Source: a virus
Lineage: Duplodnaviria; Caudoviricetes
Virus record (IMG/VR): IMGVR_UViG_3300032233_000294
Span: 1 to 62,194 of that record
Reading direction: 5' to 3' (one strand)
DNA length: 62,194 nt
Position 1 is the first letter of the stretch. Each line of letters starts with the position of its first letter. Positions 1 to 62,194 of the stretch are shown here, piece after piece. The position numbers were made by a program, and so were the translations under genes. Under the pieces are notes generated by a model. That model was not told where the DNA came from. It was given only the letters and a program-made list of their open reading frames with translations, and ran no database searches.

Positions 1-123
1 TAGTTTCACAGTCAACCCGCAAGCCTTGGTAGATTGGTATCGCGCCTCGTGTTCTGTCGTTTCTGAATTTGCCTCCCTGCGCCCCCATCCATATCGTCCC
101 ACCCCTGCGTGAGTCAGTAGATA
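1..123. repeat. Terminal overlap, identical to 62072-62194 (circular assembly)
   Basis: Exact 123-bp identity of the two ends; a minus-strand ORF continues in frame through it. Confidence 0.95.
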
Positions 124-517
124 AACAGCCACTCCCATAGTCAGACAAGATGCCTCGGTCACCCTGTCCGTAACCTGTGCTTGTGAACTCAAATGTATTG
201 TCAGGACGCACAAGCCCGAGGACATTTGGTATCTTGTCGTAACGCCGACATGTCCATGTCCCATCACTGTTCTGATGCGCGTGAAGTCTAGACACGCCAT
301 CTTTCAGTTGCTTGTCATGCTCCTGCTTTGTCAAGGACACATATGTGTAGCGATCACCATGCACGATAGAGAACACACTCTCTCCGTTCTCCTCTCCAAC
401 AAGAAAGTACTTGGTGTTCTGTCTGCGGTTACCAATAGGAAATCTATTTAGCGACCCACGAAAGGGTGAGACGCTATGTGCGATGTTGTTCAGTCTTTTG
501 TAGTTCAGTGCTTGCAT
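1..517 (-). CDS. 5' half of a junction-spanning hypothetical protein (about 345 aa, continues 62071-61551)
   Basis: ATG at 517 overlaps the upstream stop (TAATG); MQALNYKRLNNI... reads without stops into MGAQGGKFRNDRTRG of ORF 61551-62159. Confidence 0.85.
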   Translation of the reverse strand, partial: MQALNYKRLNNIAHSVSPFRGSLNRFPIGNRRQNTKYFLVGEENGESVFSIVHGDRYTYVSLTKQEHDKQLKDGVSRLHAHQNSDGTWTCRRYDKIPNVLGLVRPDNTFEFTSTGYGQGDRGILSDYGSGCLSTDSRRGGTIWMGAQGGKFRNDRTRGAIPIYQGLRVDCET

Positions 518-855
518 TACTTTTCTCCTTTAGCTTTTGCTTCTGCTCTTTCTTTTCTATGCCACCACAACCATGTGGTCTCATCTTTATCCTCAAGGGC
601 TTCTTCAAACGCATACTGCACGTTCCTTTGTAGGTCTTGCAGTTGGTCATGGCGTATCACTTCAAACGCCTCATTGGGGCGACATTTCTCTGCCGCCGCC
701 CACACTTTCTTCCAACCTTTATCCCAATCGGTCATGTCGAACCACCCAAGGTATCCATGTACACCTTCTTCAAAACCCACAAGGTAGAACCGCACTGAGC
801 CGTTCTTGTGTGGGATACCACCTTCTTCACTCATCCAGTCGTTGCTTGCAGTCAT
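517..855 (-). CDS. Hypothetical protein
   Basis: 112-aa ORF with AAGGAG RBS in a coupled operon. Confidence 0.7.
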   Translation of the reverse strand: MTASNDWMSEEGGIPHKNGSVRFYLVGFEEGVHGYLGWFDMTDWDKGWKKVWAAAEKCRPNEAFEVIRHDQLQDLQRNVQYAFEEALEDKDETTWLWWHRKERAEAKAKGEK

Positions 856-1084
856 TGCTTTCTCCTTGTAGTCTGTCTAGTTCAATTAATACTTGTCGCC
901 ACATGTTGGGGATTTGCCCCTCTTGTAATTTCTCCAACGCATACAGATGCGCAGAGTCAGGTCTTGTCTCCAAAAGGTTTTCTGCTATCTCTGTAATGAA
1001 GCGGTACTTCATACGCTCTTGTCCTTTCGAGTCAGCGACTGCGTATGCAGTTGTAGTTACCTGCATCCACAGTGAATCAGTCAT
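827..1084 (-). CDS. Hypothetical protein
   Basis: ORF overlapping the VWA gene stop, same strand as the operon. Confidence 0.6.
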   Translation of the reverse strand: MTDSLWMQVTTTAYAVADSKGQERMKYRFITEIAENLLETRPDSAHLYALEKLQEGQIPNMWRQVLIELDRLQGESNDCKQRLDE

Positions 1085-2360
1085 CACCAAACATTACCTT
1101 CTTGCCCACAGGCGGCACAAAGTCTTTGTGTTGGGTAACCATCCACAGGGTTGGGTCAGTAATCTTCCAGTCGATGTCACTCTCTACATACCCGTCAGTG
1201 AACACCAATACACACTCGGCCTTGACCTTGTTCTTAACGATGTAGTCGCTGACGCATGAGACATGAGTTCCCCCGCCGCCCATTGGCTTGAGCAACTTGG
1301 CAATGTCGGAGTAGTTGTCCTTAAAGACTTGCTCACCATGCACCTCGGTATCCCACCAAAGAACACGAACGACCTCGGGCTGACACAGGTCGCAAATTGA
1401 GACCAGTTCGGTAGCGAACTCGGTTATCTGTTCACTGCCTATCGAGCCTGATGTATCGATAGCTACAACAATCTCGCCGATGCTCTCGTTCTCCACGCTT
1501 GGCAAGTAGATGTCATTAGCCATGTGCCGCTTGTTCATGCGCCGCCATGTGAACTCATCGTTACCCTTGGTTGTTGAGGACACGAACTCACGCAACGCCT
1601 CACGCCAATCGATCTTGGGTTCTAGCAACTCAGAGATTGCTCTAGGAATCTTTGCACCCATGCGACCCGCAAGCATCCCGCCTTCACGCAACGCTTTGTC
1701 GATGCCATCGATTACTTCCTTGGCTTGCTCGGCAGTTAGCTCACCCATGAAGTCATGCTCATCTAGCTGAGAGATGTCATAGGTCTTGCCGTTGACTGTT
1801 ACTGTGTCTCCGTCACCATCACCGTCATCGTTAGATTGTGTCCCACCCGATGGTGGGGGATTACCTTGGCCCTTACCGCCTTCACCCTTACCACCCTTGC
1901 CACCCTTGCAGTTCTTCTTGAGATAGTTGTATACCTCACGCATAGACCAATCGTGAAACATCTCATCGTATACAGCGCCATCAGGCAACTCGACAATGCG
2001 CTCTTGCGTACCCGCCACTACGCCATCGATACAGGTGATGATGTCGTTGACAACAAAGTCAGCCGCTAGGTTAGCCATCTTGTGGTTCTCCAAGAACATG
2101 GCTCGGCCGAACACGACTTGCTTCAAGGCTACATGGAGATTCTCATGGAGGATGAGACCTCGTACCTTGGGTTCGCTGACGATGCTCTCCAAGAACTTAC
2201 GCCCATACTTCTTGTTCACCCCATCGGTGTAGGCAGTAGGCACATGTTCCTCAACAGCAGATGTTCCCATCAACATCACGCCTGAGTACAGTGCGGTTTG
2301 TGGGTGCTTCATAAGCGTGACATGTCCACGCTTGATTCGGGTTTCTTGCTTGCTCATCAT
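1077..2360 (-). CDS. HExxH metallopeptidase-like plus VWA-domain protein (DUF2201-type architecture)
   Basis: ILHENLH zinc motif; NLAADFVVND; Gly/Lys/Asp linker; MIDAS DTSGS...GGT...TDG; start reassigned to ATG 2360 behind GGAG. Confidence 0.85.
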   Translation of the reverse strand: MMSKQETRIKRGHVTLMKHPQTALYSGVMLMGTSAVEEHVPTAYTDGVNKKYGRKFLESIVSEPKVRGLILHENLHVALKQVVFGRAMFLENHKMANLAADFVVNDIITCIDGVVAGTQERIVELPDGAVYDEMFHDWSMREVYNYLKKNCKGGKGGKGEGGKGQGNPPPSGGTQSNDDGDGDGDTVTVNGKTYDISQLDEHDFMGELTAEQAKEVIDGIDKALREGGMLAGRMGAKIPRAISELLEPKIDWREALREFVSSTTKGNDEFTWRRMNKRHMANDIYLPSVENESIGEIVVAIDTSGSIGSEQITEFATELVSICDLCQPEVVRVLWWDTEVHGEQVFKDNYSDIAKLLKPMGGGGTHVSCVSDYIVKNKVKAECVLVFTDGYVESDIDWKITDPTLWMVTQHKDFVPPVGKKVMFGDD

Positions 2361-2449
2361 GGTCTCCAGTAAAAAACATCTAACAGAACTACGATCATCC
2401 CCAACAGCAGGGCGAACGCTCTCGCCAGCTTCTCGTATCGAGTAAACAT
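2357..2449 (-). CDS. 30-aa single-TM peptide MFTRYEKLARAFALLLGMIVVLLDVFYWRP (not in ORF track)
   Basis: GGAG RBS; ATGA-coupled to the VWA gene; hydrophobic core. Confidence 0.65.
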   Translation of the reverse strand: MFTRYEKLARAFALLLGMIVVLLDVFYWRP

Positions 2450-2492
2450 ACAATCTCCTAATTAGTTACCCACGGTATCGTGGGATTAAGTT

Positions 2493-3635
2493 TTAAAACA
2501 ACTCGTGGTTGTTTTTCGCCCACTCAGCGATCTTGGCGTTATTGCGAGCCAAGCGGATGGCCTTTGTGTTACGCATCATCATGGTGAAGAACACGCCTTG
2601 TACCTCGGACGATGGGATACGCTCAACGAACGCCATGAACTTGGTCAACTCATCTTGTGTCGCCAACACATCTACTGCCTGAAACATGATCATCAACTGC
2701 GCGCTAATGTCTTTGGGCATCGCCACATCTTCTGGGTTCTTGATGATCGTAGACACATCGACCAATGATTTCTCCATCGAGATGAACGCCGCCATGTCAG
2801 CCGCAAAGGACGCACCGACAGTACCCGCCAACGCCACCTTCATGCCGTTCTCTGTCATGTTGTCACGGTTACGCACGATCACATCGGCCTTCGCCAACGA
2901 ACGAGGGGACACGAACGATAAGGAACTCATAGATGGTTTGAAGATGTATGGGTTGTCGTTCTGATCTCCTGTGGTGTATGACGCCAAGCAACGAGGGAAC
3001 ATGGACACCGCCGCACGAATGACACGAGACACACGAGCCTGTATCTTGTCGCCAATCGTCACTGTTTGACCCGCCCACTCAAGCCACTCGTTCACATTCG
3101 GCTTTGCCATGCGCATGATGCAGACACGATTACCCGCATGGGCAAGCATCGAGTCACCCACGCCGTCACCCGCATTGTTCGATGTTGCGAAAACTTGCGA
3201 CCCACGGGGCAGTGGCTTGTCACCTACCATTCGCTCAAGAAACAATCTAGTGAAGATAACCTGCAATAGCTTAGGCGACTTCATGAACTCATCAGCCAAG
3301 ATAACCTTAGGCTTGGGGTCGTTCAGATTGAAGAGCGCCGAGACATAGTACTCAAGCGTCTGCGTACTGTGGTTGGGTATGGTCATGCCAATGTCGGACA
3401 TGTCCTTGACAGGGCAGTCGATGTAGATGTAGTCGTACTTGTCACCTGCGATGCCCGTACCATCGGCGGGACTGCGCCACTTGTCGCCGTTGTCTTCAGC
3501 GATCATAGCCAACAGGGATGTCTTGCCACACCCGGGTTCTGACTGTATGACAGGCGTGATTTCTGAAGCTATTAGGGGAATGATCTTGCGCAGTTCGTTG
3601 ATTGAAACTGTATCGACTGTTTGGACTTTAGCCAT
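2493..3635 (-). CDS. MoxR-like AAA+ ATPase
   Basis: Walker A SEPGCGKT, Walker B ILADE, sensor-1 ATSN, Arg finger NR, sensor-2 SPRS; adjacent VWA partner. Confidence 0.85.
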   Translation of the reverse strand: MAKVQTVDTVSINELRKIIPLIASEITPVIQSEPGCGKTSLLAMIAEDNGDKWRSPADGTGIAGDKYDYIYIDCPVKDMSDIGMTIPNHSTQTLEYYVSALFNLNDPKPKVILADEFMKSPKLLQVIFTRLFLERMVGDKPLPRGSQVFATSNNAGDGVGDSMLAHAGNRVCIMRMAKPNVNEWLEWAGQTVTIGDKIQARVSRVIRAAVSMFPRCLASYTTGDQNDNPYIFKPSMSSLSFVSPRSLAKADVIVRNRDNMTENGMKVALAGTVGASFAADMAAFISMEKSLVDVSTIIKNPEDVAMPKDISAQLMIMFQAVDVLATQDELTKFMAFVERIPSSEVQGVFFTMMMRNTKAIRLARNNAKIAEWAKNNHELF

Positions 3636-3680
3636 GATTAATTACTTTCTTTACTGAGGTTAGACTAGGTTAAGATAACT

Positions 3681-4604
3681 TCAGACGCACTGGAATGCGC
3701 CGAACTTGCCGAGGATACTGTCAATATCCTCCTTCACTGCATGGCGCACCGCATCGGACTCTCGAATGTCCTCTGCCGTCACACCACTCAATGCTTTCTC
3801 CAACGATGCTCTGGCTTGCTCCAGCTCGGGATCACCGCTTAGATTGAAGCCTTTGAATGTGTCGCACATCTCCTTGGCTTTCTGAATTGTTGTGTCGTAG
3901 ATTTTGCGTTTCTTGGTCTTGGTTTCTCCAGTGTTATCGTCAACGCCGGTTTCGTCAACCCCACAGCAATGACTGATCGACTTCATAACTTCAATGAACC
4001 TTGTTTGCTGCTCCACCATCACATGGGACACTATTTGCTCGGCTTGCTTGCTGTATGTCGCAAACAAGTCTTCAGCGATGTCTGACGCAATGCCGCAGCG
4101 AAAGTCACTCATCGGCACTTCCGACACGAATAGCTGAACGCCGAACTTAGATACCAGTTGCTCTTTAGCGGGGTAGTCATTGCGGTCGAACATGTCACCC
4201 ATGCCACCTGCATTGAACGCCATGTCAGAGACAATCCCGTCATAGGACGCGATGAAGTCAACAAGCAAGGTACTGAATGCAAGCTGATGTGCGTGGTACT
4301 CCTGCTTGAACTTGGGGATGTCTACGCTCGGCAGTAGGTCTTGCGAGTTGTTCCACCGATAGGTGCGCCGCTTGACCCAGTTGTAGATTGTTTGGCGGTA
4401 GTTGACGATGGCTTTGTGCTTGGGGTGATCGGCTAAGAGATTCTTAACATATCGACCTGCTCTCTTGTCGGCATTCTTCGATGTAGTGACCTCATTGCTG
4501 ATGACACGATCTTGCTTGGTTGCTGACCATACATTGACATCCACGCTCACGAGGACTGCTGATGATGCGAGACTGATGAGGTGCTCGGGTTTGTGTAATT
4601 CCAT
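3681..4604 (-). CDS. Helical hypothetical protein, DUF3150-like
   Basis: Start reassigned to ATG 4604 (AAAGGAG); VNVWSATKQD, DYPAKEQL and F-x-V motifs plus position upstream of AAA/VWA resemble DUF3150 proteins. Confidence 0.6.
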   Translation of the reverse strand: MELHKPEHLISLASSAVLVSVDVNVWSATKQDRVISNEVTTSKNADKRAGRYVKNLLADHPKHKAIVNYRQTIYNWVKRRTYRWNNSQDLLPSVDIPKFKQEYHAHQLAFSTLLVDFIASYDGIVSDMAFNAGGMGDMFDRNDYPAKEQLVSKFGVQLFVSEVPMSDFRCGIASDIAEDLFATYSKQAEQIVSHVMVEQQTRFIEVMKSISHCCGVDETGVDDNTGETKTKKRKIYDTTIQKAKEMCDTFKGFNLSGDPELEQARASLEKALSGVTAEDIRESDAVRHAVKEDIDSILGKFGAFQCV

Positions 4605-4690
4605 AACGCTCTCCTTTGGTTGAAAACAAATTCCACTGATGCGTGGGACACTAAACAGCGGGGAACTCAGAACGTTTCCCAACTATCATA

Positions 4691-4719
4691 AGTATAACAC
4701 AACTTGACTTATGAGTCAA
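4691..4719 (-). promoter_or_regulatory. Sigma70-type promoter
   Basis: TTGACT-17 bp-TATACT on the minus strand. Confidence 0.8.
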
Positions 4720-4728
4720 GGGGTTTGC

Positions 4729-4923
4729 TCAAGTTTTTTCTGTAAGCGGCTTGTATTGATTCTCTAGCCGATACATAGCTTGCAGAACTGCTAACCAGAA
4801 CTTACGCCCTGAGTCATGACTGTCGTAGGCGAACGCATGATCTGTCGCACGCGCATACGGCGTGTAGTTGCTGTGCTTGTACATACTGAGCATGCGTTTA
4901 GCGGTTTCTTCGTGGTCGTTCAT
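4729..4923 (-). CDS. Hypothetical protein (MNDHEETAK...)
   Basis: GGAGG RBS; ATGA-coupled to the upstream ORF. Confidence 0.6.
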   Translation of the reverse strand: MNDHEETAKRMLSMYKHSNYTPYARATDHAFAYDSHDSGRKFWLAVLQAMYRLENQYKPLTEKT

Positions 4924-5144
4924 CTGTGTAGCCCTCCCTTGTTGTTGATACCCTTGAGGTCGCTCATGTCTGTGATGAGCATGTAGTTGCTCTTGTGCAT
5001 GGGCGCAATAGTCCACGATTTCCTTGCTTCCTTGGCGAGCATCTCCCCGCATGGGAGACACCACTTGTAACCAATAGCCCACCTGCCAGTGGGATACTCT
5101 TCGCCGCATTGCCTACACTCTGGTCTATGAATGTTGTCAGTCAT
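4920..5144 (-). CDS. Small zinc-ribbon protein
   Basis: CRQC...CLPC pair. Confidence 0.7.
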   Translation of the reverse strand: MTDNIHRPECRQCGEEYPTGRWAIGYKWCLPCGEMLAKEARKSWTIAPMHKSNYMLITDMSDLKGINNKGGLHR

Positions 5145-5203
5145 GTTGTTCCCTATCTACTCGTTATGTGTTTCACTCAAAGTCAAGTCCTATCGGAACG
5201 AGA

Positions 5204-5443
5204 CTACTTAAAATCTTCCTCTTGCAGTGGGGGCAACTCCATCGCCTCGTTGACCATGAACCACACATCGCGCAGAGACTCCATATCCTCAGAGCCAGTG
5301 CAAGGTGCTCCATAGCCAGTCGGGTTGCCTTTGTTGTCGTAGCAGACTTCTTGTAGACAATACCAATCCTCGCCGCCGTTCTGGCTCTTGGTGTTGACAA
5401 TCCTGTAGTTCCAAGTAAAGCTGCCGTCATCTTCTTCAAACAT
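5204..5443 (-). CDS. Acidic hypothetical protein
   Basis: AGGAG RBS; WNYR...EVCYD motif. Confidence 0.65.
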   Translation of the reverse strand: MFEEDDGSFTWNYRIVNTKSQNGGEDWYCLQEVCYDNKGNPTGYGAPCTGSEDMESLRDVWFMVNEAMELPPLQEEDFK

Positions 5444-5672
5444 AACCATTCTCCTGTAGTGCATGGGCTACGACACCCATAGTTTTGATGCGGTACTTGT
5501 TCTCTTGGCCCTCATGTGCATCACCCTGCATGCAGATGTGCATCTCGTAGTCGGCTGTGTCCCGATGGTCATACAACGCCAAGGGTTTGCCGTTGCACAG
5601 AAGCAAGAACATGGTGCGTCCTGCTTGGTTGGCAATCTCGATGTCGATTGCAATGTCTTTCATGCGTCCCAT
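5436..5672 (-). CDS. Hypothetical protein
   Basis: 78-aa ORF with AGGAG RBS. Confidence 0.65.
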   Translation of the reverse strand: MGRMKDIAIDIEIANQAGRTMFLLLCNGKPLALYDHRDTADYEMHICMQGDAHEGQENKYRIKTMGVVAHALQENGYV

Positions 5673-5727
5673 AATGATCTCCTAGTTAATGACCCACTTA
5701 CCCGTGGGTGCTCAGTTGAATGAATGA

Positions 5728-6054
5728 TTAGAGAATGTCGTAGCCAGTCAAGTACTGGAACGACTCGACCTCGGTCATGGCAGAAGTGATTGTCAGACCC
5801 TCATGCTCATCATCGATGTCATCGAACTCATCGAAGCCGTATGCACGATCGAGGAACTCAAGGTTCTGCAAGAGCCGCGTATCAACACGGCAGTCCGTGG
5901 CTAAGTAGTCATCCACGCCATCGTGGGTATTGACATTGCGCTGACGGGGCGTGGTGAGACGCAGAGTCTTGCGAACTGCGCGGGGCGTGGCTTGCATCCA
6001 TGCCGTAGGGTCTGACTGTCTGTCAGGTAATGCTGTCATAAACGATATCATCAT
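5728..6054 (-). CDS. Acidic hypothetical protein
   Basis: AAGGAG RBS; Asp/Glu-rich C-terminus. Confidence 0.65.
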   Translation of the reverse strand: MMISFMTALPDRQSDPTAWMQATPRAVRKTLRLTTPRQRNVNTHDGVDDYLATDCRVDTRLLQNLEFLDRAYGFDEFDDIDDEHEGLTITSAMTEVESFQYLTGYDIL

Positions 6055-6165
6055 TTCCATCTCCTTGTGGTTCCTGCAAAGGACACCGATTGGTTGAAAC
6101 AAAACCCACGCATGCGTGGGATGCTATTTAGAGTTGGAGCCAAGACGCCTCCCTACTCAGACTCA

Positions 6166-6194
6166 AGTATACCATAACTTTACATTTGAGTCAA
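6166..6194 (-). promoter_or_regulatory. Sigma70-type promoter
   Basis: TTGACT-17 bp-TATACT, same hexamers as 4691-4719. Confidence 0.8.
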
Positions 6195-6215
6195 GCAGTT
6201 AATAAAGAAAGTAAT

Positions 6216-6422
6216 TCAGGATGGTGATCTTGCATAGACCCCGCTTTTCTCGTAAGGCTGTTTTTGCTTGAAGAGTTCGTCACCTTTCAATCCTCTGCGG
6301 TAGCGCATACGCAATGTGTCGTACGGAATTTCTAGGTAGATTGACCATTGACGCAATGTTTTGGATAGGGCGTCATGCGTGATGATGTCTGTGGACTGGG
6401 ACTTGATGGGCTTGAGCAGCAT
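6216..6422 (-). CDS. Small HTH-like DNA-binding protein
   Basis: KTLRQWSIYLEIPYDTLRMRYRRG helix-turn-helix-like pattern; GGAGG RBS. Confidence 0.55.
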   Translation of the reverse strand: MLLKPIKSQSTDIITHDALSKTLRQWSIYLEIPYDTLRMRYRRGLKGDELFKQKQPYEKSGVYARSPS

Positions 6423-6449
6423 AGGGAAAACCTCCGTTTTGATATAGAA

Positions 6450-6840
6450 GTGTTCATTATATTCTAATTGTTCAATGTGTTCAAGGACTATTTTGTTTTT
6501 GTTCTACCGTTCTGGTCTGTTCTACTTTTGATACTATGCTTATAGAACGGAAAATGGGGGGTCAAAACGCTGTAAGTTGTTGATTTCATTACTTATTTAT
6601 TTATTTAAAATATGTTTGTACTGTTGTTCTACAGAAAAGAGGTATATGCTCCTCTTTTTTGATGTTTTTTCTGCATTGGCTGGGCAGCCTCCGTCCTTTG
6701 CACTTTTCTCAAAAACTGGGCATACTCCGCAAAATCGTAGTACAAATAGAACAAAACCTCTGCAACCCGCATGGATGCTCAGTTTTCTTGTTCTATTGCG
6801 GTACACTAAAAGGTGTTTTGTTCTACTAAAAAATAGAACA
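6450..6840. repeat. Iteron-like TGTTCTA array with AT-rich core; candidate replication origin
   Basis: TGTTCTA at 6500, 6518, 6625, 6789, 6819; TAGAACA at 6747, 6834; variants at 6451, 6469, 6478, 6543; AT tract about 6585-6615. Confidence 0.6.
6573..6585 (-). promoter_or_regulatory. IHF consensus site
   Basis: AATCAACAACTTA matches WATCAANNNNTTR exactly. Confidence 0.55.
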
Positions 6841-6854
6841 AGCCGCTCAGCCTA

Positions 6855-6926
6855 TCAGTTCTGAAAACGGTAGGCGATGCAACACTCATTTTTGACCCTG
6901 TCAGTTCTGAGAACGGTAAGCGATGC
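6855..6926. repeat. 26-bp direct repeat (6855-6880, 6901-6926)
   Basis: TCAGTTCTGARAACGGTARGCGATGC, 24/26 identical. Confidence 0.85.
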
Positions 6927-7030
6927 GATGAATTCCACGCATGCGTGGGACGCTAATTAAGCTCCTTGTCCATGCTTTGCGCGCCCTCTCGCGCGCGTCG
7001 AAAAATAACTGGTCTCAAAATGGCGGGACG

Positions 7031-7063
7031 AAAAAAAGCCCCTGACCATTTCTGATCAGGGGC
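7031..7063 (-). terminator. Intrinsic terminator
   Basis: GCCCCTGA/TCAGGGGC stem plus T7 on the minus strand. Confidence 0.85.
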
Positions 7064-7079
7064 GTCATGTACAACAGTT

Positions 7080-7676
7080 TTATTTGTTGTATGTCATCCA
7101 AAAGGATTTCACAGCAAGGGTGAACTTGGCGCTGTTGGCGGTGGTGTCACCCTTTGCTTGTTTCACTTTCACCGATTTTTCCTGTGCTTCAAAGGCCTTG
7201 AGCATAGACTGTGCGAAATCTAGAGTAGTCCTAGATGACCCGTCCGATTTATTGATCAGGCGTTTTGCCGATCGTTTGAGATCACCTAATCGGTTAGAAC
7301 AATAATCCGCCACATCATCCCGAATGACCTTGATGATGCTGTGCAGGGCAGGGTTTGTGTTTTTCATTTTGCCGAATTCCTGCGATGAATAGGCAAAGGC
7401 ATAAGCCACACCAACATCGATCTTTTCGATCTTTTTATTCTGCACTTGTTCAGGCGTTGCTAACACATAGTGATCATTGATCACAGCGTACATTGTGGCG
7501 GGTTTACGCTCGCTGTAACGCATACGATACCCGTCATACAAGGCGTCCTTTGCTTCGCTTGGCACATCCTCGGGAAACCCTGTGATGTTGTCCAATGCGA
7601 ACTGTGCTTGGGTTTCTAAGGTGTCACCCGTTTTAGCTTGTTGATAACCTAGATCCTTGAGCGATGAAATTGTCAT
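7080..7676 (-). CDS. Early hypothetical protein, paralog 1
   Basis: Shares EAKDALY.GYRM, YAVIN.HYVLA, YSSQEFGK..NTNPALH and YCSNRL.DLKR with 7903-8592; start reassigned to ATG 7676. Confidence 0.85.
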   Translation of the reverse strand: MTISSLKDLGYQQAKTGDTLETQAQFALDNITGFPEDVPSEAKDALYDGYRMRYSERKPATMYAVINDHYVLATPEQVQNKKIEKIDVGVAYAFAYSSQEFGKMKNTNPALHSIIKVIRDDVADYCSNRLGDLKRSAKRLINKSDGSSRTTLDFAQSMLKAFEAQEKSVKVKQAKGDTTANSAKFTLAVKSFWMTYNK

Positions 7677-7733
7677 GATGTTGTCCTCTAAAGTTGATGA
7701 AATATCGCCTAGTTGTTTTCTAAGCGATGATGT

Positions 7734-7763
7734 ATAGTGGCACAATCTAGGGGCTTAAGTAAA
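7734..7763 (-). promoter_or_regulatory. Probable sigma70 promoter abutting a palindrome
   Basis: TTTACT-18 bp-CACTAT; homologous to 8663-8692 and 9635-9664. Confidence 0.5.
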
Positions 7764-7860
7764 GTTCCACGGGGGGATGGGACGCTATTCAATGGCCTTG
7801 CCAGCCACGCACGCACTCCCGCGCGCGTCGAAAAATAACTGGTCTCAAAAAGCACAGGCG

Positions 7861-7894
7861 AAAAAAAACCCCACAGACCTTTCGATCTGTGGGG
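7861..7894 (-). terminator. Intrinsic terminator
   Basis: CCCCACAGA/TCTGTGGGG stem plus T8. Confidence 0.85.
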
Positions 7895-7902
7895 CTAGCT
7901 AA

Positions 7903-8592
7903 TTACTTAGCGTCTGAGTGTTTCCACTTCACCATGAAGGCTACCTTCGCCTCATTGAATCTCTTAGAGTCAGCCGTAGCGTCATTTCGGCTCTTGGCTG
8001 TCTTCAGCCTAGTTGGAGCTGACTCTTTAAACCACTCTTCAACAAACTCAGCAAAGTCCTTGTTAGCGGTACGCTGACGCTCTTTACCCTCATTGAGAAG
8101 CTTCGTAGCCGCTCTTTTCAAGTCACTCAGCCGATTCGAGCAGTAGGTAGAGCATAGCTTCCTAATCTCCCTTATCAAAGCGTGGAGGGCTGGGTTAGTG
8201 TTAGCTAACTTCCCAAACTCTTGTGATGAGTAACTGTAGGCGTAGGGCACTCCAATGTTGATTTTCTCAACATTGTCGGTCTTCTTATGCTCTTCGCTAG
8301 CGAGTACATAGTGACCGTTTATCACTGCATAGCAGACTGAGGGTTGAAGCGTGTCAAACTTCATGCGATAGCCTTCGTAGAGCGCATCTTTTGCCTCAGT
8401 GGGCACTTCTTTTGGGAAGTCCTTAATCTGGGCTAAGGCGTAACGAGCTACTGACTCCAAGGTCTGGTATGCACCGGCTTGCTGAAAGGCTGAGTCCTTC
8501 AGTGAAGTGAAGGTCTTAGCGGTTGCTGATAATGCCATACCAGCGTCTAACAATGCTACCGTAGTAGCTTCTAACTTTGACTTTGTAGCCAT
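7903..8592 (-). CDS. Early hypothetical protein, paralog 2
   Basis: Roughly half identical to 7080-7676 by eye; GGAG RBS. Confidence 0.85.
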   Translation of the reverse strand: MATKSKLEATTVALLDAGMALSATAKTFTSLKDSAFQQAGAYQTLESVARYALAQIKDFPKEVPTEAKDALYEGYRMKFDTLQPSVCYAVINGHYVLASEEHKKTDNVEKINIGVPYAYSYSSQEFGKLANTNPALHALIREIRKLCSTYCSNRLSDLKRAATKLLNEGKERQRTANKDFAEFVEEWFKESAPTRLKTAKSRNDATADSKRFNEAKVAFMVKWKHSDAK

Positions 8593-8662
8593 GTTCAAAT
8601 CTCCATAAAATGAACGGTTTGATAAAACACTGAATCAGCGGAACTGCTGAATCAGTGAGGTA

Positions 8663-8692
8663 ATAATGCCATAGTGGAGGGTCTTAAGTAAA
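8663..8692 (-). promoter_or_regulatory. Probable sigma70 promoter abutting a palindrome
   Basis: TTTACT-18 bp-CATTAT with a TG extension. Confidence 0.55.
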
Positions 8693-8773
8693 GTTTCACG
8701 AGGGGATGGGACTCTACTTAGCGGCCTTGTGACTCGCACGCACTCATACGCGCGACGGAAAATAACTGGTATC

Positions 8774-8801
8774 AATAGGAGAGGCCGAAGCCCCTCCTAT
8801 T
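8774..8801 (-). terminator. 12-bp cUUCGg hairpin after ORF 8803
   Basis: AATAGGAGGGGC-TTCG-GCCTCTCCTATT; weak U tract. Confidence 0.6.
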
Positions 8802-8802
8802 A

Positions 8803-8997
8803 CTAACTGCGCATTGCCCTAGCTAGAGACCTACCAATCATGGCCCGAACGTGGAGCACATCAGCGTGCTTGTCTGGGTCTTCCTCCTTTAGCTTGGCCA
8901 AGTCCTCGGGGTATAAACCCATACAGTACATGATGTGCTCGATGCCATACTTAGAGTATGTATCGCCGGTGAAAGGGGCCGAAGCCCCGTCCTTCAT
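8803..8997 (-). CDS. Hypothetical protein (64 aa)
   Basis: AAGGAGG RBS; ATGA-coupled start MKDGASAP. Confidence 0.6.
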   Translation of the reverse strand: MKDGASAPFTGDTYSKYGIEHIMYCMGLYPEDLAKLKEEDPDKHADVLHVRAMIGRSLARAMRS

Positions 8998-9158
8998 GCT
9001 GCCTCCTTCAGCGCTAGTATTGACCATGTGACTACTACTGTTCCCCACATGGTAGCGCCGAGGTACAACCACATGCCTTGTGGGATCAGACCATAGAGGC
9101 CAACACCTAGTGTCACTGTACCGATGATGGCCGTGAGGCCGAGGTATACATTATTCAT
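8994..9158 (-). CDS. 54-aa two-TM membrane protein (not in ORF track)
   Basis: AAGGAG RBS; MNNVYLGLTAIIGTVTLGVGLYGLIPQGMWLYLGATMWGTVVVTWSILALKEAA. Confidence 0.7.
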   Translation of the reverse strand: MNNVYLGLTAIIGTVTLGVGLYGLIPQGMWLYLGATMWGTVVVTWSILALKEAA

Positions 9159-9159
9159 A

Positions 9160-9324
9160 TCAAGCTCCTTGGATTAGTTTCGCAGTTACTAAAGAGTAAC
9201 CATCTATTGCTAGCGTTGCCCTGATACATGCTATGGCGTGTTCAGTATCTCTGACTAGACGTACACTCATTACGCCGCCCCATTGATGTCCATCAGAGTC
9301 TTTAAAGGTGATGGTAAAAGACAT
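9160..9324 (-). CDS. 54-aa hypothetical protein (not in ORF track)
   Basis: AGGAG RBS; MSFTITFKDSDGHQWGG...; stop lies 1 nt from the next start. Confidence 0.65.
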   Translation of the reverse strand: MSFTITFKDSDGHQWGGVMSVRLVRDTEHAIACIRATLAIDGYSLVTAKLIQGA

Positions 9325-9341
9325 ATCAATCTCCTAGAGTT

Positions 9342-9365
9342 AAAGAAGAGGGGCCGAAGCCCCTC
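9342..9365 (-). terminator. cUUCGg hairpin terminator
   Basis: GAGGGGC-TTCG-GCCCCTC followed by TTCTTT. Confidence 0.7.
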
Positions 9366-9370
9366 GATGG

Positions 9371-9589
9371 TTAGCGGTAGTAACGTACCGCGATGCGTTG
9401 ACCAAACACGTTGGTGACCTTGCTGAACTGCTGTCTTGCTACAGCCAGCTTGCGACTATGCAACCACACCCACTCCAGTGCGCCAGACTTAGTCCATGTC
9501 TTATGCACTGATGCACCAGACGGAAGGTACACCGAGGCGGTGTAGATACCATGGGTACGAATCCACTTACGTACTGCTTGCATGATCAT
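9371..9589 (-). CDS. First gene of the leftward arm, basic hypothetical protein
   Basis: GGAG RBS; follows promoter 9635-9664. Confidence 0.65.
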   Translation of the reverse strand: MIMQAVRKWIRTHGIYTASVYLPSGASVHKTWTKSGALEWVWLHSRKLAVARQQFSKVTNVFGQRIAVRYYR

Positions 9590-40125: not shown

Positions 40126-43100
40126 ATGGCGCTAGACATTGAAAAAGCACGGGCGGCTGGCTACTCCGAGGCTGAAATTGTTGACTATTTAGGCAAAGAC
40201 TCAACCTTAGATATTGGCAAAGCTAGGGCTGCGGGGTATGACAACGCAGCTCTTATTAAGCACTTAAGCGCTCCTAAACAGGAAACGCCTAAACCTGCTG
40301 CCCCTGCTGCGCCCCCTGTGGCTACAGGTCCAAAGGGTAAAGACACCACGCAATTGTCAGACGACGATGAGACTGGCAACTTTATGCGCGGCATCTATAA
40401 CTACCTGCCACAGCTTCAAGAAACCTATGGCGGTGCAAAAGTATTTGCGGGTATGGGGTTGAAGAAGCTAGGCGCTACAGAAACTGGACAGGAGTTGATT
40501 GAAAGCGGCAAAGAGTCAATGGATGTTGGCGAGTCTAAGCAGTTGACCCGTGAGTCTGATTCTTTAACAAAAGCATTTGAAAAAGGTATTGGTACTGTTG
40601 TTACTGATTGGCTTCCATACAACATTGGTTCTGGTATTGCAAACATTGGTGAAACCCTTGCTTTTATGGGTATTGGCGCTGGCGTAGGAGCAGTGACAGG
40701 TGCGGGTGTGGGCGCGATTCCCGGCGCAATTAGCGGCGCAATATCTAAAACTCTTGTTAAAAAAGGTATTAAAGAAGCTGCTGAAACCATAATTGAGGCC
40801 GAGGCTAAAAAAGCCGTTGCCGCAGGCGCTACTAAACAAGCAGCCAAAGCTGCTGGTGAGGTTGCTGGTACTAAATTTATTGAAGCGCAAAGTAAAAACG
40901 TCCTGCTTGAAGCGAGCGAGATGGCGGCTAAAGCCTATGGAAAAGCGGGCGCTAAGTCATATGGCGCAACTGCCGCCATGGTGGGGCAAGCTGGGTTACA
41001 CGGTACGGGCGAGACTACAAGCCGTGCGGTAAATGAAGCCGAAAGAGCGGGCATGGACGTAGAAGATATTGACTACGGACGCCTTGCTACAGCAGCTGCG
41101 GTTCATAGCGTGGCCGACTTCTTCATAAACAAAATTGGCGTAAACGCGTTGAAGATTGGTGAACAAGCTACGCAGTCTTTAATTCTGGATATTGGTAAGC
41201 GTATTGCTGTAACTGGTCTCAAAGAAATCCCCGCCGAAGAAATCCAAACAATGGCTGAGCGCTATGGCGCAAACTTGTCGTTGACTGATGCAGAAGCTTT
41301 GCGTGAGTACGTTGATACCGCTGGCGCTGCGTTTGCTATGTCAGTTGGCCCCGGAACAGTAGGTGGCGCTAAAACTCATTACGTAAACAAACTTAAAAAA
41401 GCTGGCGCTGAAGCTGAAACTGCGGGGCAAACATATAAAGGAGACCTCACAGTCAACAAAGATGTTGTACCCCCAACAGCTAAAGGTTTTGATAAAGAAA
41501 GTGCTGACCTACTCATGCCTGCTTCCGATGCAGCGGGTAAGCCTATTGTTGCTAATGTCGCGGCTGCTGAAGTTACTGAGGCTACACCCGCACCTAAAAA
41601 ACCTAGAACGTCAGGTGTAGCTTTAGATTCAATTGAAGCGGCTACTGACTACGTGCAAGCACTAGATGCGGGCACTAAAAAGCCAAACACAATGCAAGTA
41701 AATGCATTGATGAAAACTTTAGGTATTGCTCCTCCAGAAAAAGGAGAAGGTTATTTGGGCCGCTCAGTTGCGGCAGTTAAAGCGCGTCTTGCAGAACAAG
41801 GAGCACCCGATGCTACAGGAACTAACATCGAAGCAGGTGGAGGAGGCCCTGATGTGGCTGCACTCACCGATACAGAGCAGGCCGCCGCAGGAGATGCTGG
41901 ATCTCAATCCCGTGGAATGGTATCTACTAGAGCAGATGCTGGGCCAAATTTGGCTAGAACAGGCCCACAGCCCCCTCCATTAATAAGCCCCGTATCGCAG
42001 CGAATCATTACGGATGAATACAACGCTGGAGCAACTCCTGCTGAACTTATTACTAAATATGGTGGTACACCAGAAGCAGCCGCCAATATTGATACGTTTA
42101 TTAAATCTCTCCCACCTCAAGGAACCACAGATGGCACTGCGACCTCTCAAGCCAAGCAAACAAAAGCGCAAGGACAAGCATCAGCAACCAGACCAGCAGC
42201 CGGATCAGTAAGCCTCGGTAGTCTTGCGCCAGAAATTCAAGAAGATATTCAGTCTCGTAGAGACACTGTCTATGAAATGGTCAGTGAAGGCGCAGGCGCA
42301 AATAAAATTGCCAATGCCTACAAAGCTTTAAACGCTTTGGAAGAGCGCCTCGGCCTAGATATTACTAAGCCTACTACGCTTAGCGCTAAACGCGATAAAC
42401 AAGGCCGCTTAAAAACTCAAGACCTCGTTGATGAGGGCGGTCAGGCAACAGCTACTGAGCAGGATAGAACGCCGGGGTATCAAGGTGATGACTTGCAAGA
42501 GGCAATGAATCTTGCGGATAAGTACGACAAACAGGAAGAGCAAGAAAAACAGAAAGCGTATGAAGAGTCTCTGGGTAAGGGTGAGTCACGTTATGACCAA
42601 GATAATTTGCCTAGTAACGCTGAAGAAAACTACGACGCCGTAGCTGAAGAGCTTAACGCGAAGGCTGAGACCGCCAACGAAACACGCAAAGGTCTTGCAG
42701 CCAAAGTAGCGGGCTTAACGCAACAGCACAGGGACGCTGTAAATGAAGTTGAGCGGCTTGAAGATGCTATTGATGCTGCTGAGCGTAACAACGACCAGAA
42801 AAAATTAGCAACTCTGCGTGAACAAGAAAGCGAAGCCAACAGCCGCGAGAGCAACTTGCTCGGCGATTTGATTGACTCGCAAACAGCACTGCAAGGACAC
42901 GGCGTTGTACAAAACCAGCTTAAACCTTGGCGCAAGCTTGACTCTACCGATAAAGACATCTACTTCGGGTACATCCGTAAAAACACGCCTGCTGAACACC
43001 GCCAAGCTGCCGCTGCACTGCTAGACGCAAAGAACAAAGCTGGCGTTAAATCTCGTGAGGGTGAGGGCAAGATGGACGCAGCGGAGCGCCGCGCTGCCCA

Positions 43101-46100
43101 AAACTACGAAGACAACCGTGCGCAGATGAGCAAGCTGCTCGGCGTTCAGTTCCCTGCATGGGAGAAGTTGTCGCCTGCCGCAAAGGCTGTGTATCTTAGA
43201 GAGATTGTTAACAACGCTGGGCAGCAGCAAGATGTGGCGTTTGCCAAACTTGGCGTTAAGCTGGTCCAAGACAACAAAGCGTTAAGCGAGCAAGAGAAAA
43301 AGCGCGATCAGAAAAACATCACTGACCGGCAAGAAGAAGTGCGCCGCAAGTCAGAAGAGCAAAACGAAAAAGACCGCAAGACCCGCGAAGCTTACGAGCG
43401 CAACAAACCGTCTGCTAGTTCCCTGCCTAACAGCGTAATTCAAATGATCATGAACAGCGACCTGCAAGGTGTGCTGGACTACATGAGCAACGCTAAGCTG
43501 GACTCTAAATCAGCGCCTACTAAGCGGATCATGAAAGCAGTGGCGCAGGCTCTTGCCGCTATGAAGCTCAACACCAAAATACAAATTGTTGAGGCCTCAA
43601 AGATTGAAGGTGACTTGGCGCAGTACGACCCAGTCAAAGACGTTATCTACATCACCAGAGAAGGCCTGAGTAGCAACACTATCCTGCACGAGATTATCCA
43701 CGCAGGTACGGTCAAGGTCATCAACGAGTACTTGTACGGTAACAAGGGCTCTCTGTCTCAGTTGCAGTTAGCTGGCGTCAGGCAGTTAGAGCGGATCATG
43801 GAAGAGACTCGTGGGTCACTTGCTGTAGATCATCCTGAGGCATACAGAAAAATTAAAGTAGACGGAAAAGAAAAACTTAACCTGTTTGAGTTTGTGTCTT
43901 ATGCTTTGACTAGCGCTCAACTGCAACAAGACTTGCATGATGAGTCTGTCGCGGGTGCTGGCGCAGAACGCTTGCTTAAAGGTGTTTACGGCAAAGAAAA
44001 CACTATCACAGAAACTATTGGCAAAATTCTGCCTACGGACAAGTCTCAGTGGTCTAAGTTCAAACTAGCTATTGCGCGTATTCTTAAAGTGCGTGATGAG
44101 TATTTGACTAAAGGCAAGTTGGACAGAACTGCTGACACCAACTACTTAATGGAGATTGCGGCGGCGTTTGAAGACATCCTTGTCAAACCAACTGAGCCAA
44201 TCTATCTTCCAGTGCTACCGGCTAAGAAAGCTGCCGCCCCTGCTAAAGCGCCTAAGCAAGCGCCTAAATTTCAAACGTCTGGGTTGTATGAAAAAGACAA
44301 GTCCTACAAATTAAGTAACAAAGAGAAGCATGGCCTAGACGTTGAAGGTGACCTATCAACAATAGGCCGCGTTAAACGCGCTTTTAGCCGTCATGGCTGG
44401 AGAGACTTTGTTACTAAAGTGCAGAGTCGGCGTCATCACATTCGCGCCTATGAAAATGAATTAGCTATGGCGGGGTTGCTTGTGCGCGATCCAACCTTGG
44501 CATTTAATAACGTCAGTGAAAAACAAGACTTAGCTATAAATCAAGGCGTCCGATACGCTATTGATTATTTGCAGCAGCCCCTGCAAAAACTGCATGAGAG
44601 TTTTAGCGACTGGTTAACATCAACTAATCAAAATACCGAAGCGGGTCTTGAGCAGTTTCATAAATTAGGGGAGATGTTTGGGGCAACTGAAAAGCGTTTT
44701 ACTAAGTGGTTAATGTTTGTGCCGTTAAGTAAAATACAAAATTTAATTCACAATGGTAAACCAATCAGCGCCGCTGAGCGCCGCATTGCTCTTGTGGGCG
44801 ACCCACGTACAGGAGTAGATGGATTAATTCATAGAGTTAAATTAAATGCTCAACAAATGGCAGCTATTAATAAAGAGCTAGAGTACCTCGCTACTAATCA
44901 TAATGATCCATTTGGTGATAGTCCTCGCATCAGCGAAAAAATGCGTATACGATTTGCTAAACCCGGCTCAAAACACAAGGGCTTAGATGTTGATATGGAC
45001 AAGCCAATCTTCAACGCTCTTGGTATTGAAAAAGTTACGGTAGATAAACGCATGGCTGAATTTCTAGCAAAAAGTCCAGAAGAACAAGCGTTAATTAAAG
45101 AAATATTTGCTCAAGTAAAAATTGTTACTGACGCCACCGCCAAGCTTAATGAAATTGGAAACTACTGGTCAATGCCTGTATCCAACATTGTAGGCATCTA
45201 CAACTACCAATACTACATGCCATTTAAAGGTCTGTCTAAGCATAGCAAAGCGGATGACATGATTGACCCCAACAGCAAAATGAATGGCGCTGAATTGCAG
45301 GATGAAATTCATTCAGCAGAAGGGCGTTTCTCTACGTCAGATAACCCGCTGTTACAGACTATCTACGACGGCTATAGAGCGGCTAGCCGTGCTGGGCGTA
45401 AAGACTTTACGCAGGCTGTTGAGAATGCTGTTGAGCCAACTACTAAAAAAGACGCATACAACCCAACAGGTACGGGCATTATTGTCGGTAGGGTTGTTAA
45501 AACAGTTCCATTTTGGGAACGCGATACTACGGACCTTTCTAAATACAAAGGGGCCAATAGCAAGTACATGTTTAACTACAAAGCCGATGGTTCTATGAAT
45601 ATCATCGCTATCGACAACCCTAAGTTGTTGCAAGCTATTCGTTACCCATTCCAAGAAAAAACTCCGCTGTGGGACGCCGCTAATCGGATAACAGGATTTT
45701 TTGGATCAATGCATACGCGATTTAACTACAACTTTGCGCCAAAAGACTTTGTAGTAAATACATTGACCAATGCTTGGGTTGGGGCTACAAATGAAATAGT
45801 TGGCCCATTAGGTTCTGTTGCGTATTTAAAAGATGTAGCTATGTCGGTTGCTAGAAACGGTCTTAGCAAAGCAATGAATATTGCTGTGTTGCATGAGATT
45901 GGAAACGCTGGCAGTAAAAAAATTATGAGTGATATGGCGGCAAAAGATTCGTTTGTCCGCGACATGCTTGAGATGATTAGGTACGGCGGCAAGAGTACTT
46001 ACATGGAAAGCTTCTCTTTAAAGTCAAATCTTGAGAACCTCAGTCAGAATTCTTTTGGTAAAAACAACATCATCACTGACCCTATTAGCGCAACTAAATT

Positions 46101-50692: not shown

Positions 50693-51007
50693 TTAGTCAA
50701 ATTTCCTCCCGACCATATCTTCAAGGTACGCTTTAGCCAGTGCGGTGTTCTTTGCTGGAAGAAGACCTTTGGCAGTGTCACTCTCAATCAAGTCAGTCAG
50801 TGTCTCAACCTTAATAAGGTTGTTATGGCGCAAAGGTTTGCCACGGAACCAACTGAAGACCGTCATGCGAGTTACCTCTAACGCACTGGCTACGTACTTT
50901 GCAGGGAGATTCGCATTCACGCAAGCAAGCGCCAGTGCAATGCCAGCCCTATTGGGATTGGCCTTGTGCAACTCAATCAAAAAAGCTTCGCTGTATGTCC
51001 GTGACAT
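50693..51007 (-). CDS. Cro/XRE-like HTH regulator
   Basis: AKYVASALEVTRMTVFSWFRG. Confidence 0.75.
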   Translation of the reverse strand: MSRTYSEAFLIELHKANPNRAGIALALACVNANLPAKYVASALEVTRMTVFSWFRGKPLRHNNLIKVETLTDLIESDTAKGLLPAKNTALAKAYLEDMVGRKFD

Positions 51008-58268: not shown

Positions 58269-58437
58269 CTGTTTTTCCAAAGATTTTCTCGTAGTACTGT
58301 GCGGGGAACGGCGCTTTCTTCTCTAAGAGTGTTCGCAACCATTCCGCACCGCCAAGCTGACCAAGTATCAAGAACTGCTTGTCGGTCAGTCGGATTTGTC
58401 TTCCTATGAGGGGCGAGGGGGGTTTGGGTCTAGGCAT
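58249..58437 (-). CDS. Ribbon-helix-helix-like small protein
   Basis: MPRPKP...RQIRLTDKQ...LGGAEWLR. Confidence 0.6.
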   Translation of the reverse strand: MPRPKPPSPLIGRQIRLTDKQFLILGQLGGAEWLRTLLEKKAPFPAQYYEKIFGKTDATNND

Positions 58438-58978: not shown

Positions 58979-59006
58979 TAGCGTCCCACTGAGGCATGGG
59001 AGGCTA
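58979..59006. promoter_or_regulatory. Near-complete copy of the 28-bp palindrome TAGCGTCCCAC-N6-GTGGGACGCTA
   Basis: TAGCGTCCCAC TGAGGC ATGGGAGGCTA; another near-complete copy at 449-476. Confidence 0.7.
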
Positions 59007-59027: not shown

Positions 59028-59053
59028 AAAAAAAGGCATGGCGAACCATGCCC
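59028..59053 (-). terminator. Intrinsic terminator
   Basis: GGGCATGG-TTCG-CCATGCCT plus T tract. Confidence 0.85.
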
Positions 59054-59060
59054 TAAGGGT

Positions 59061-59582: not shown

Positions 59583-59778
59583 TTGCCTTCTCCTTTTTGG
59601 TTTGGCGTTTAATTGATACGATACCGGCACTGTGCCGATCTCGTGCCTTCTGCATAGAATCTGCTATCTCATACGCTATGTCGGCTAGTTCATCTGTAAC
59701 CCCCTTTCTCATAATTAAACCAACTAGTGCAAGACCAGCGTGTAGGTCACGCAGATTGCTACGATCTTCATCATTCAT
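59569..59778 (-). CDS. Hypothetical protein
   Basis: LRDL.AG.A..G...AY..AD.M..AR pattern. Confidence 0.7.
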   Translation of the reverse strand: MNDEDRSNLRDLHAGLALVGLIMRKGVTDELADIAYEIADSMQKARDRHSAGIVSIKRQTKKEKANDPQ

Positions 59779-62071: not shown

Positions 62072-62194
62072 TAGTTTCACAGTCAACCCGCAAGCCTTGG
62101 TAGATTGGTATCGCGCCTCGTGTTCTGTCGTTTCTGAATTTGCCTCCCTGCGCCCCCATCCATATCGTCCCACCCCTGCGTGAGTCAGTAGATA
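62072..62194. repeat. Terminal overlap, identical to 1-123
   Basis: Exact identity. Confidence 0.95.

Follow-up and report, generated by a model that had tools for sequence, protein, structure and literature searches.

A palindromic site array confined to the early arc of an uncultured freshwater phage genome, with a candidate family of binding proteins

The locus and its genes

In this study we analysed a repeated palindrome, CCCAC-N6-GTGGG, that lies in the early region of the IMG/VR virus record IMGVR_UViG_3300032233_000294 (Duplodnaviria; Caudoviricetes), whose 62,194 nucleotides form the window throughout. An exact 123-b terminal overlap (1-123 equals 62072-62194) leaves a unique length of 62,071 b. 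Minus-strand genes start at about 9750, pass position 1 and continue on the other side of the junction from 62071 to 47752; plus-strand late genes occupy 10255-47562. Pfam and PHROGs scans reveal that the minus arm begins with many small genes without assigned function and continues with replication genes encoding a family A DNA polymerase, a PD-(D/E)XK nuclease, an SNF2 helicase and a DUF927 primase-helicase. The same scans identify, all on the minus strand, a MoxR-like ATPase (g13, 2493-3635), a DUF2201 VWA/metallopeptidase (g14, 1077-2453) and a VRR-NUC-like protein (59775-60059). No phage RNA polymerase is seen among the window proteins scanned; neither is an integrase or repressor homologue found among the window genes scanned. 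The phage is uncultured, and its DNA occurs in freshwater and lake metagenomes. A megablast search of positions 1-9000 against deposited phages gives zero matches, and on the terminase only, the closest deposited relatives are phage DSL-LC04 and the Pelagibacter phages HTVC027P/023P, with identities of about 50%.

An array of sites restricted to one arc

All five perfect copies listed by a sequence-only reading of this DNA (1842, 2469, 5078, 5693 and 6105) are present, against 0.04 expected, and none of 100 shuffled genomes reaches five. Allowing one mismatch gives 14 matches, which count as 13 sites because the match at 62169 duplicates that at 98 through the terminal overlap; 1.35 are expected, and the stretch from 58985 over the junction to 6934 contains all 13. 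The palindrome is also specific in its spacing. A spacer of six gives the five perfect and 13 near-perfect copies, while spacers of 2-5 and 7-10 give 0-1 perfect and 1-4 near-perfect copies. At two to three mismatches the background rises to about 20-30 matches per genome, and the weaker copies at 4012, 7766, 8695 and 60067 sit at that level. A 36-column weight matrix does recover these copies; it derives from 609 sites in relatives, none of them identical to any window site. At a threshold of at least 12 bits the matrix finds 18 matches, compared with 0.75 per shuffled genome. All of them are in an 11.8-kb early arc, and the remaining 50 kb has none; the strongest match outside the arc, at 49645, scores 10.9 bits. 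The 18 consist of the 17 copies reported before plus one at 4540. The earlier claim that the palindrome marks the early arc alone is thus borne out, and the late arm, for which an equal density had been named as the counter-result, holds no site at this threshold.

The placement of the sites is also not that of chance. According to our gene map nine are intergenic, one lies at a gene junction (60067) and eight are within genes. The statement that about half of the copies are in coding sequence is close in number, with seven of the original 17 in genes. Only 13.9% of the arc is non-coding, so that the probability of finding at least nine of 17 copies in non-coding DNA is 1.6e-4.

The copies inside genes exceed expectation as well. 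Six intragenic sites with at most one mismatch are observed, compared with 0.44 in synonymous-codon shuffles of the 19 arc genes, and none of 1000 shuffles reaches six. Several of these copies hold their position in relatives. The clearest example is the copy in the ATPase, which is encoded through the peptide M-V-G-D-x-P-L-P-(S/R)-G, with Pro as CCA and Ser as AGT or Arg as CGT. The Gly codon is GGG in nine of nine site-keeping rows from CCCAC loci and mostly GGA, with three GGG exceptions, in rows from TCCAC loci, although the rows are related and represent few independent events. Lineages with a different peptide at this position have no site. These patterns indicate that the intragenic copies are maintained by codon choice.

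The sites along the early arc

Our transcription map is inferred from consensus scans and our own reading of the sequence; read in the direction of transcription, the arc begins with two similar units. The site at 8695-8710 (sense CCCAT-N6-GTGAA, intergenic, 24.8 bits) ends 2 nt upstream of the -35 box TTTACT (8692-8687) of the promoter of g5 (7903-8592, minus), which encodes the first early protein, of 229 aa. This gene is closed by an intrinsic terminator with a 13-bp stem and a T run (7867-7896, minus). The intergenic site at 7766-7781 (28.4 bits) has the g5 terminator on one side and, on the other, the -35 box TTTACT (7763-7758) of the promoter of g6 (7080-7676, minus), a paralogue of g5 that encodes 198 aa and is 48% identical to it. 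An intrinsic terminator with an 11-bp stem and a T run follows g6 (7038-7063, minus), and the site at 6934-6949 (26.3 bits) lies in the intergenic DNA downstream of it. Each of the two units thus consists of a site, a TTTACT box 2 nt on, one of the paralogous genes and a strong terminator.

The next copies are associated with the two strongest early promoters, both minus-strand TTGACT-17-TATACT promoters with a TG element, at 6166-6194 and 4691-4719. The perfect site at 6105-6120 lies in the leader at about +40 to +55 of the first and is followed by TTTTGTTT; that at 4632-4647 lies at about +38 to +53 of the second and is followed by ATTTGTTTT. The earlier placement of two copies next to -35 boxes and of two others in leaders is consequently correct for 8695 and 7766 and for 6105 and 4632, respectively. 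Between these promoters are a copy within g8 (5912-5927; gene 6060-5728), a perfect intergenic copy 20 nt upstream of the ATG at 5672 (5693-5708), and a perfect copy at 5078-5093, which is upstream of the GTG start at 5016 supported by a ribosome-binding site and inside the longest open reading frame, 5109-4729.

Gene g12 (4604-3681) contains two copies, at 4012-4027 (21.2 bits) and at 4540-4555 (sense TCCTC-N6-GTGGA, 16.9 bits), the latter being the weak extra copy that was absent from the earlier list. The ATPase copy at 3201-3216 occupies the codons P-L-P-R-G of g13, a perfect copy (2469-2484) is in the gap between g13 and g14, and another perfect copy (1842-1857) is within g14; the positions of the ATPase and g14 copies are kept in relatives. 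Gene g17, which crosses the junction (517 to 61551), has one site 16 codons from its start (455-470) and also holds the copy at 98-113 with its overlap duplicate at 62169-62184. Beyond the junction, sites lie within g19 (61269-61284; gene 61367-60393) and, weakly (16.1 bits), where g20 meets g21, 7 nt before the ATG at 60059 (60067-60082). The last copy, 58985-59000, is just downstream of the minus-strand terminator after g23 (59033-59054) that closes the site-bearing arc. The nearly full palindromes described at 449-476 and 58979-59006 around two of these sites are real, with two arm mismatches each. Because the first site adjoins the g5 promoter and the last follows the terminator, the array spans the arc from the first early promoter (about 8690) to the terminator at 59054-59033. 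The replication genes beyond that terminator have zero sites.

Two further elements are found beside these features. At the two strongest early promoters (4704-4719 and 6179-6194), a second palindrome, TTGAC-N6-GTCAA, overlaps both the -35 box and the spacer. It has 11 window matches with at most one mismatch compared with 2.4 expected, and 2-3 copies in many related loci, and it may act as another operator. Each of the first three sites is preceded, at about 8715-8760, 7785-7830 and 6955-7000, by a G+C-rich element with the sense-strand sequence GCGCGCG...GAGTGCGTGCG...CAAGGCC.

Arm types among relatives

Comparison with 80 related loci, gathered through the ATPase at 58-93% identity, reveals that a dominant 5-N6-5 palindrome is present in nearly all of them, and that its arms vary by lineage. 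The arms are CCCAC in 25 loci, TCCAC in 36, TTCAC in three, GTCGT in one and GTAGT in two; nine loci have too few copies for a call. In the remaining four (L061-L063 and L069) the half-site word is kept and its orientation is flipped, giving an everted ATGTGGACA-NN-TGTCCACAT, which reads GTGGA-N6-TCCAC and occurs in about five copies per 21 kb. Counting distinct perfect palindromes with spacers of 2-10, the spacer is six in 62 of 64 for CCCAC, 130 of 139 for TCCAC, 10 of 11 for TTCAC, 9 of 13 for GTCGT and 15 of 16 for GTAGT. Five complete or near-complete relatives each have 13-16 sites with at most one mismatch in a single arc of 10.7-13.5 kb and 0-1 stray site, compared with 1, 3, 3, 1 and 9 matches to a reversed control pattern. 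On an ATPase tree made by a quick method, the CCCAC and TCCAC labels need at least four and at least six changes. From this distribution it would appear either that the arms have been re-specified repeatedly or that arcs recombine.

Such lineage differences bear on the possibility that the binder is a host protein, for example a global regulator or a bipartite restriction-modification specificity, with different arms reflecting different hosts. Both CRP-type regulators and restriction enzymes that recognise interrupted palindromes have sites of the 5-N6-5 layout, and no phage DNA-binding domain could be tied to the site. However, the arms differ between L082 and L083 although these two phages are near-identical, the labels change at least four to six times on the tree, and the sites are enriched rather than avoided. 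We therefore give a host binder the least credence of all the explanations considered here.

Duplex operator or hairpin

To describe the site we compiled a profile from 666 distinct sites of the window and the 80 loci, taking all YCCAC-N6-GTGGR matches with at most one mismatch and keeping chance matches. The full site is a 36-bp imperfect palindrome, TAnnTAGCnT-YCCAC-N6-GTGGR-AnGCTAnnTA, in which both flanks are conserved in mirror symmetry. The half-site is approximately TAnnTAGCGT-YCCAC, and the two YCCAC cores are 11 bp apart, which is one helical turn. The spacer is free apart from a scarcity of A at the first position and of T at the last, and the information at loop positions 7-10 is 0.00-0.02 bits. 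In most copies one half is good and extended and the other minimal; the arms are identical at every copy within one genome, and the spacer varies. The sequence hallmarks of an operator for a dimeric regulator are accordingly seen, namely inverted half-sites one helical turn apart, fixed spacing and a free spacer.

A palindrome can also act as a hairpin, and the copies could be RNA or single-strand DNA hairpins in early transcripts, serving as processing or stabilising elements, as leader attenuators or as targets of the boxB/N or Csy4 type. Several observations speak for hairpins and so against a duplex site. The 5-bp arms alone fold as bare RNA hairpins of -4.8 to -8.9 kcal/mol, and the arms are paired in the sense-strand minimum-free-energy structures of 14 of 17 copies (five pairs in eight, three or four in six). 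Two copies, 6105 and 4632, both in leaders, are followed by T/U-rich runs and resemble weak terminators. Ten of the 18 copies are intergenic or at a junction, often 7-30 nt before a ribosome-binding site and ATG, and the arm changes between lineages are symmetric, so that pairing is also preserved.

On the other side, the stem sequence is fixed and the loop is free, which is the opposite of most protein-recognised RNA hairpins, and the loop length is always six. The flanks are conserved without pairing. For the pairs 0/17 to -4/21, the observed pairing of 0.35, 0.31, 0.27, 0.24 and 0.37 is what independent columns predict (0.35, 0.28, 0.28, 0.28 and 0.41); pairing beyond the 5-bp arms is therefore chance, and the flanks do not form a longer stem. 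Mismatched arm pairs favour neither strand when G-T is compared with A-C, and C-A mismatches in the sense strand are as frequent as G-U. Some copies follow strong terminators and lie upstream of -35 boxes, where little RNA is expected, and copies in conserved genes would cut or stop their own mRNA.

Nor do the known hairpin classes describe the array well. A scan for intrinsic terminators on the transcribed (minus) strand lists 6105, 5078 and 58985, with a clean T run at 6105 only; the copy at 4632, T-rich by eye, is unlisted, and the true terminators, with stems of 9-13 bp, lie elsewhere. Hairpins of the boxB/nut type have a conserved loop and few leader copies, whereas here the loop carries 0.00-0.02 bits and there are 18 copies. 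In the 5' untranslated regions of g6 and g5 (7690-7750 and 8600-8660) there is a hairpin of 6-10 bp that looks like a true RNA structure adjoining the site. By eye, the two sides of these nearby hairpins show compensatory changes across lineages, a behaviour that the site never shows within one genome.

Taken together, the fixed spacing, the constancy of the arms within each genome, flanks without covariation and the lack of strand bias argue for recognition of duplex DNA, as do the copies between terminators and -35 boxes and the intragenic copies kept by codon choice. We consider it fairly probable that the repeats are duplex-DNA docking sites, or operators, for a two-fold symmetric phage-encoded protein, and we regard a hairpin function as unlikely, though it is the most serious of the alternatives. 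The earlier proposal of a dimeric-protein site confined to the early region fits all of these sequence tests, which do not choose among the coating, roadblocking, activation or entry pacing that had been proposed with it.

If a protein does dock at these sites, the positions of the copies suggest how it would most likely act. The binder, once made, would autoregulate its own promoter and would then block or modulate host RNA polymerase over the whole early arc, resulting in a temporal shut-off. Its contact points would be the -35 boxes of the first early genes, g5 and g6, and, downstream of the two strongest early promoters, leader positions of about +40 to +55, with the remaining sites between or within early genes.

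Candidate binding proteins

Four candidates for the binder had been put forward: two helix-turn-helix (HTH) proteins (g7, 6216-6422, and g38, 50693-51007), a ribbon-helix-helix protein (g25, 58249-58437) and the paralogues g5 and g6. Of these, the paralogues emerge from our comparisons as the best candidate. Every g5/g6 homologue examined comes after a site plus promoter, as judged from the upstream regions with a loose arm match, regions without such a match being left out. In 33 of 38 distinct upstream regions of this kind, of both CCCAC and TCCAC types, the right arm is followed by TTTAC within 2-3 nt, and a TATAWY -10 box usually lies 17-18 nt beyond the TTTAC. The g5 family, of which 809 members were found, has no name. 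Prediction of g5 in two copies gives an ipSAE of 0.74, compared with 0.01 for the best control, with at least 94% contact agreement between runs and pLDDT of at least 82. Among proteins of solved structure, 20 of 30 pairs of one chain attain this value, as does one of 23 single chains, counts that hold only roughly because our own alignment was used. The protein is thus predicted to be a symmetric homodimer.

A further argument comes from the loci L082 (GTCGT arms) and L083 (GTAGT arms), which are 78-92% identical in DNA and 94% identical in the ATPase. The gene of about 220 aa after their first sites, in the position of g5 and g6 of the window, has no BLAST similarity between the two (E 3.9), while that of L083 is 75% identical to its counterpart in the second GTAGT phage. 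The model of g5 and that of the protein in this position of L082/L083 are alike in their predicted order of helices and strands and in nothing more.

Several results weigh against this candidate or against assigning it a role in binding. The confident g5 model (pLDDT 88) has no recognisable DNA-binding fold; a Foldseek search of the PDB with it gives no match at E of 0.001 or below, the best VIA Z, for a helical hairpin, is 6.0, and Pfam and PHROGs return nothing for g5. Homology between g5 and the L082/L083 proteins in the same position is unsupported, with hhalign probabilities of 0.5-2%. Moreover, in these three phages the divergence of g19 likewise follows the arms, with identities of 49% and 47% across types and 69% within. 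No protein stands out when CCCAC and TCCAC phages are compared by column association or by pairwise identity; every family has near-perfect columns, which makes the first comparison uninformative, and the second was no more informative. Weighing these points, we put forward the g5/g6 family as the binder only tentatively. Profile searches of g5 and g20 against PDB sequences yield nothing below E 0.08.

The other proteins considered were set aside for different reasons. In g38 the HTH helix stays essentially the same over all five arm types, and a GTCGT phage and a GTAGT phage do not differ at all in the aligned stretch. The HTH and DUF3310 protein g23 (59061-59582) is an unlikely binder, as its putative recognition helix varies widely among phages with TCCAC sites. 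Both g7 and g25 are too narrowly distributed, occurring in 10 and 15 of the 80 loci, respectively. A 244-aa gene (15256-15987 in L082, 14805-15539 in L083), 26% identical between the two, is absent from the second GTAGT phage; it has a sub-threshold match to the chromatin protein MC1 family (E 0.007).

A restriction-site-poor arc

The arc that carries the sites coincides with a zone in which certain tetranucleotides are scarce. From 57800 across the junction to 8848, ACGT occurs twice, where its density in the remaining genome would predict about 40 (P 4e-15), and CCGG occurs four times against 40 expected from base composition; GGCC is also scarce. Four small genes just upstream (8803-9589) hold five ACGT. 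Other tetranucleotides are avoided in the site arcs of relatives, AGCT and GTAC in G003 and AGCT in G004. The pattern fits an arc that would be the first to meet host restriction, and it lends indirect support to the earlier suggestion that the array acts on first-entering DNA. TCGA behaves in the opposite way. It is strongly avoided outside the arc (8800-58900; 60 compared with 195 expected from composition) and not inside it (42 compared with 46), a pattern that is the same in G002, G003 and G004.

A leading segment free of some restriction sites has a precedent in the first-step-transfer (pre-early) DNA of phage T5. In T5 this segment, of about 10 kb, contains the earliest genes and lacks certain restriction sites, and in these respects it resembles the arc described here. 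It is conceivable that a protein-bound array serves the entry or protection of the first-entering DNA, by pacing or stopping first-step transfer or by providing handles for pulling in the rest of the genome, and not transcription. The coincidence of the two zones and the avoidance of other tetranucleotides in the arcs of G003 and G004 would suit such a role, as would the spacing of the sites, which is more even than random in the window (coefficient of variation 0.44, P 0.00075) and in G002 (P 0.014). It is not significantly even in G001, G003 and G004 (P 0.17-0.40), however, and the ACGT-free zone extends 1.2 kb beyond the last site. The record is a circular-type assembly whose 123-b overlap does not place the physical ends, and the promoter and leader positions of four copies indicate transcription. 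Two-step entry is not known to us for this phage family, nor do we know of any site array with such a role in T5. We consider a function in entry instead of transcription improbable.

A combined proposal links the array, the arc and the candidate binder. In this proposal g5 and g6 would represent a new symmetric DNA-binding fold co-evolving with its own array, and the array and the restriction-site-free arc would together mark a first-entering segment whose expression, and perhaps whose completion of entry, would be governed by the g5/g6 protein. It is in our judgement rather unlikely. If it is true, the protein would be to lytic phages what immunity repressors are to temperate ones, and it would occur throughout a large, abundant phage group of fresh and marine waters.

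Comparison with known site arrays

The array had been likened to the stoperators of mycobacteriophage L5 and to parS arrays, and it belongs to neither class. Stoperator specificity in Cluster A mycobacteriophages reportedly differs among related phages. In the account cited, one phage protein of this cluster, as exemplified by gp71 of L5 and the repressor of TipsytheTRex, binds more than 20 sites in L5 and stops both initiation and elongation (PMC9283540). As in our window, many copies of one short site are described there in promoters and short intergenic gaps (PMC9283540). Stoperators are 13 bp long and asymmetric, are bound by a two-domain monomer, are oriented with transcription, are distributed genome-wide and serve lysogenic immunity. 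Unlike them, the sites of our array are palindromic with a 6-bp spacer, are intragenic in about half of the cases and lie in one 12-kb arc. Two-fold symmetry extends from the core to the flanks and all 18 sites are within the 11.8-kb arc, with five relatives alike, so that membership in the L5 stoperator class fails on both symmetry and distribution. Pfam and PHROGs scans of the early proteins reveal no family of the gp71 type, with HTH and stoperator domains, no search directed at gp71 having been made. As for parS/ParB and KorB arrays, they also consist of a palindromic site repeated over a region, and the half-site GTTCCAC resembles the parS half TGTTCCAC. The parS halves form a 16-bp palindrome without a spacer, however, whereas the spacer here is invariably six, and Pfam finds no ParB-like domain in the 40 window proteins scanned; the parS reading fails for these two reasons.

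A third comparison is with the PeSL cassettes of T4-like phages, in which, as the source describes them, an inverted repeat lies directly upstream of a TTTACW-N17-TAYWAT early promoter in plastic early regions (PMC4122927). PeSLs are read as units of terminator plus promoter and as recombination points, with stems that vary. The copies could thus be mobile regulatory cassettes of this kind, which spread by, and promote, recombination of early gene modules without a dedicated binder. The copies at 8695 and 7766 do have the layout of an intergenic palindrome directly before a TTTACW-type early promoter, and the early gene content between sites is highly variable among relatives. The other 16 copies lack that layout, eight of them being intragenic, in conserved genes at conserved positions and kept by codon choice, and most have no promoter. 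Unlike PeSLs, the array has fixed arms and invariant spacing, its core is only 16 bp, and separate strong terminators already precede the promoter-linked copies. For these reasons we regard cassettes of the PeSL type as a very improbable explanation.

Returning to operators bound by a symmetric phage protein, we rate the array as a variant of operator/stoperator arrays, with which it shares its layout and from which it differs in defining features. What this case adds is a strict 5-N6-5 geometry over five arm types, codon-level upkeep in genes, the match to a restriction-poor arc, and a candidate binder that lacks a known fold. It shows how regulatory sites can be written through conserved coding sequence via codon choice, and it offers a sequence handle on early-gene timing in an abundant group of uncultured phages. 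The relatives provide a natural series of re-specified site/protein pairs with at least five arm types, and the coincidence of the arcs would tie gene control to the order in which the DNA meets the host. Since the candidate matches neither a known fold nor a known family, proof of binding would establish a class of DNA-binding protein not seen before.

Other observations in the window

Two other regions of the window deserve mention. About 500 b at 6423-6933 have no convincing gene; they contain a good promoter (6484-6456) and a terminator-like hairpin on both strands (6632-6661). A late gene at 40126-47562 encodes a protein of 2478 aa, which is probably an ejected virion protein. We considered it as an RNA polymerase of the N4 type that uses hairpin promoters, and dropped this idea since it has no PDB relative and since the sites are palindromic and intragenic; the only domain recognised in it is LPD38 (large polyvalent protein).

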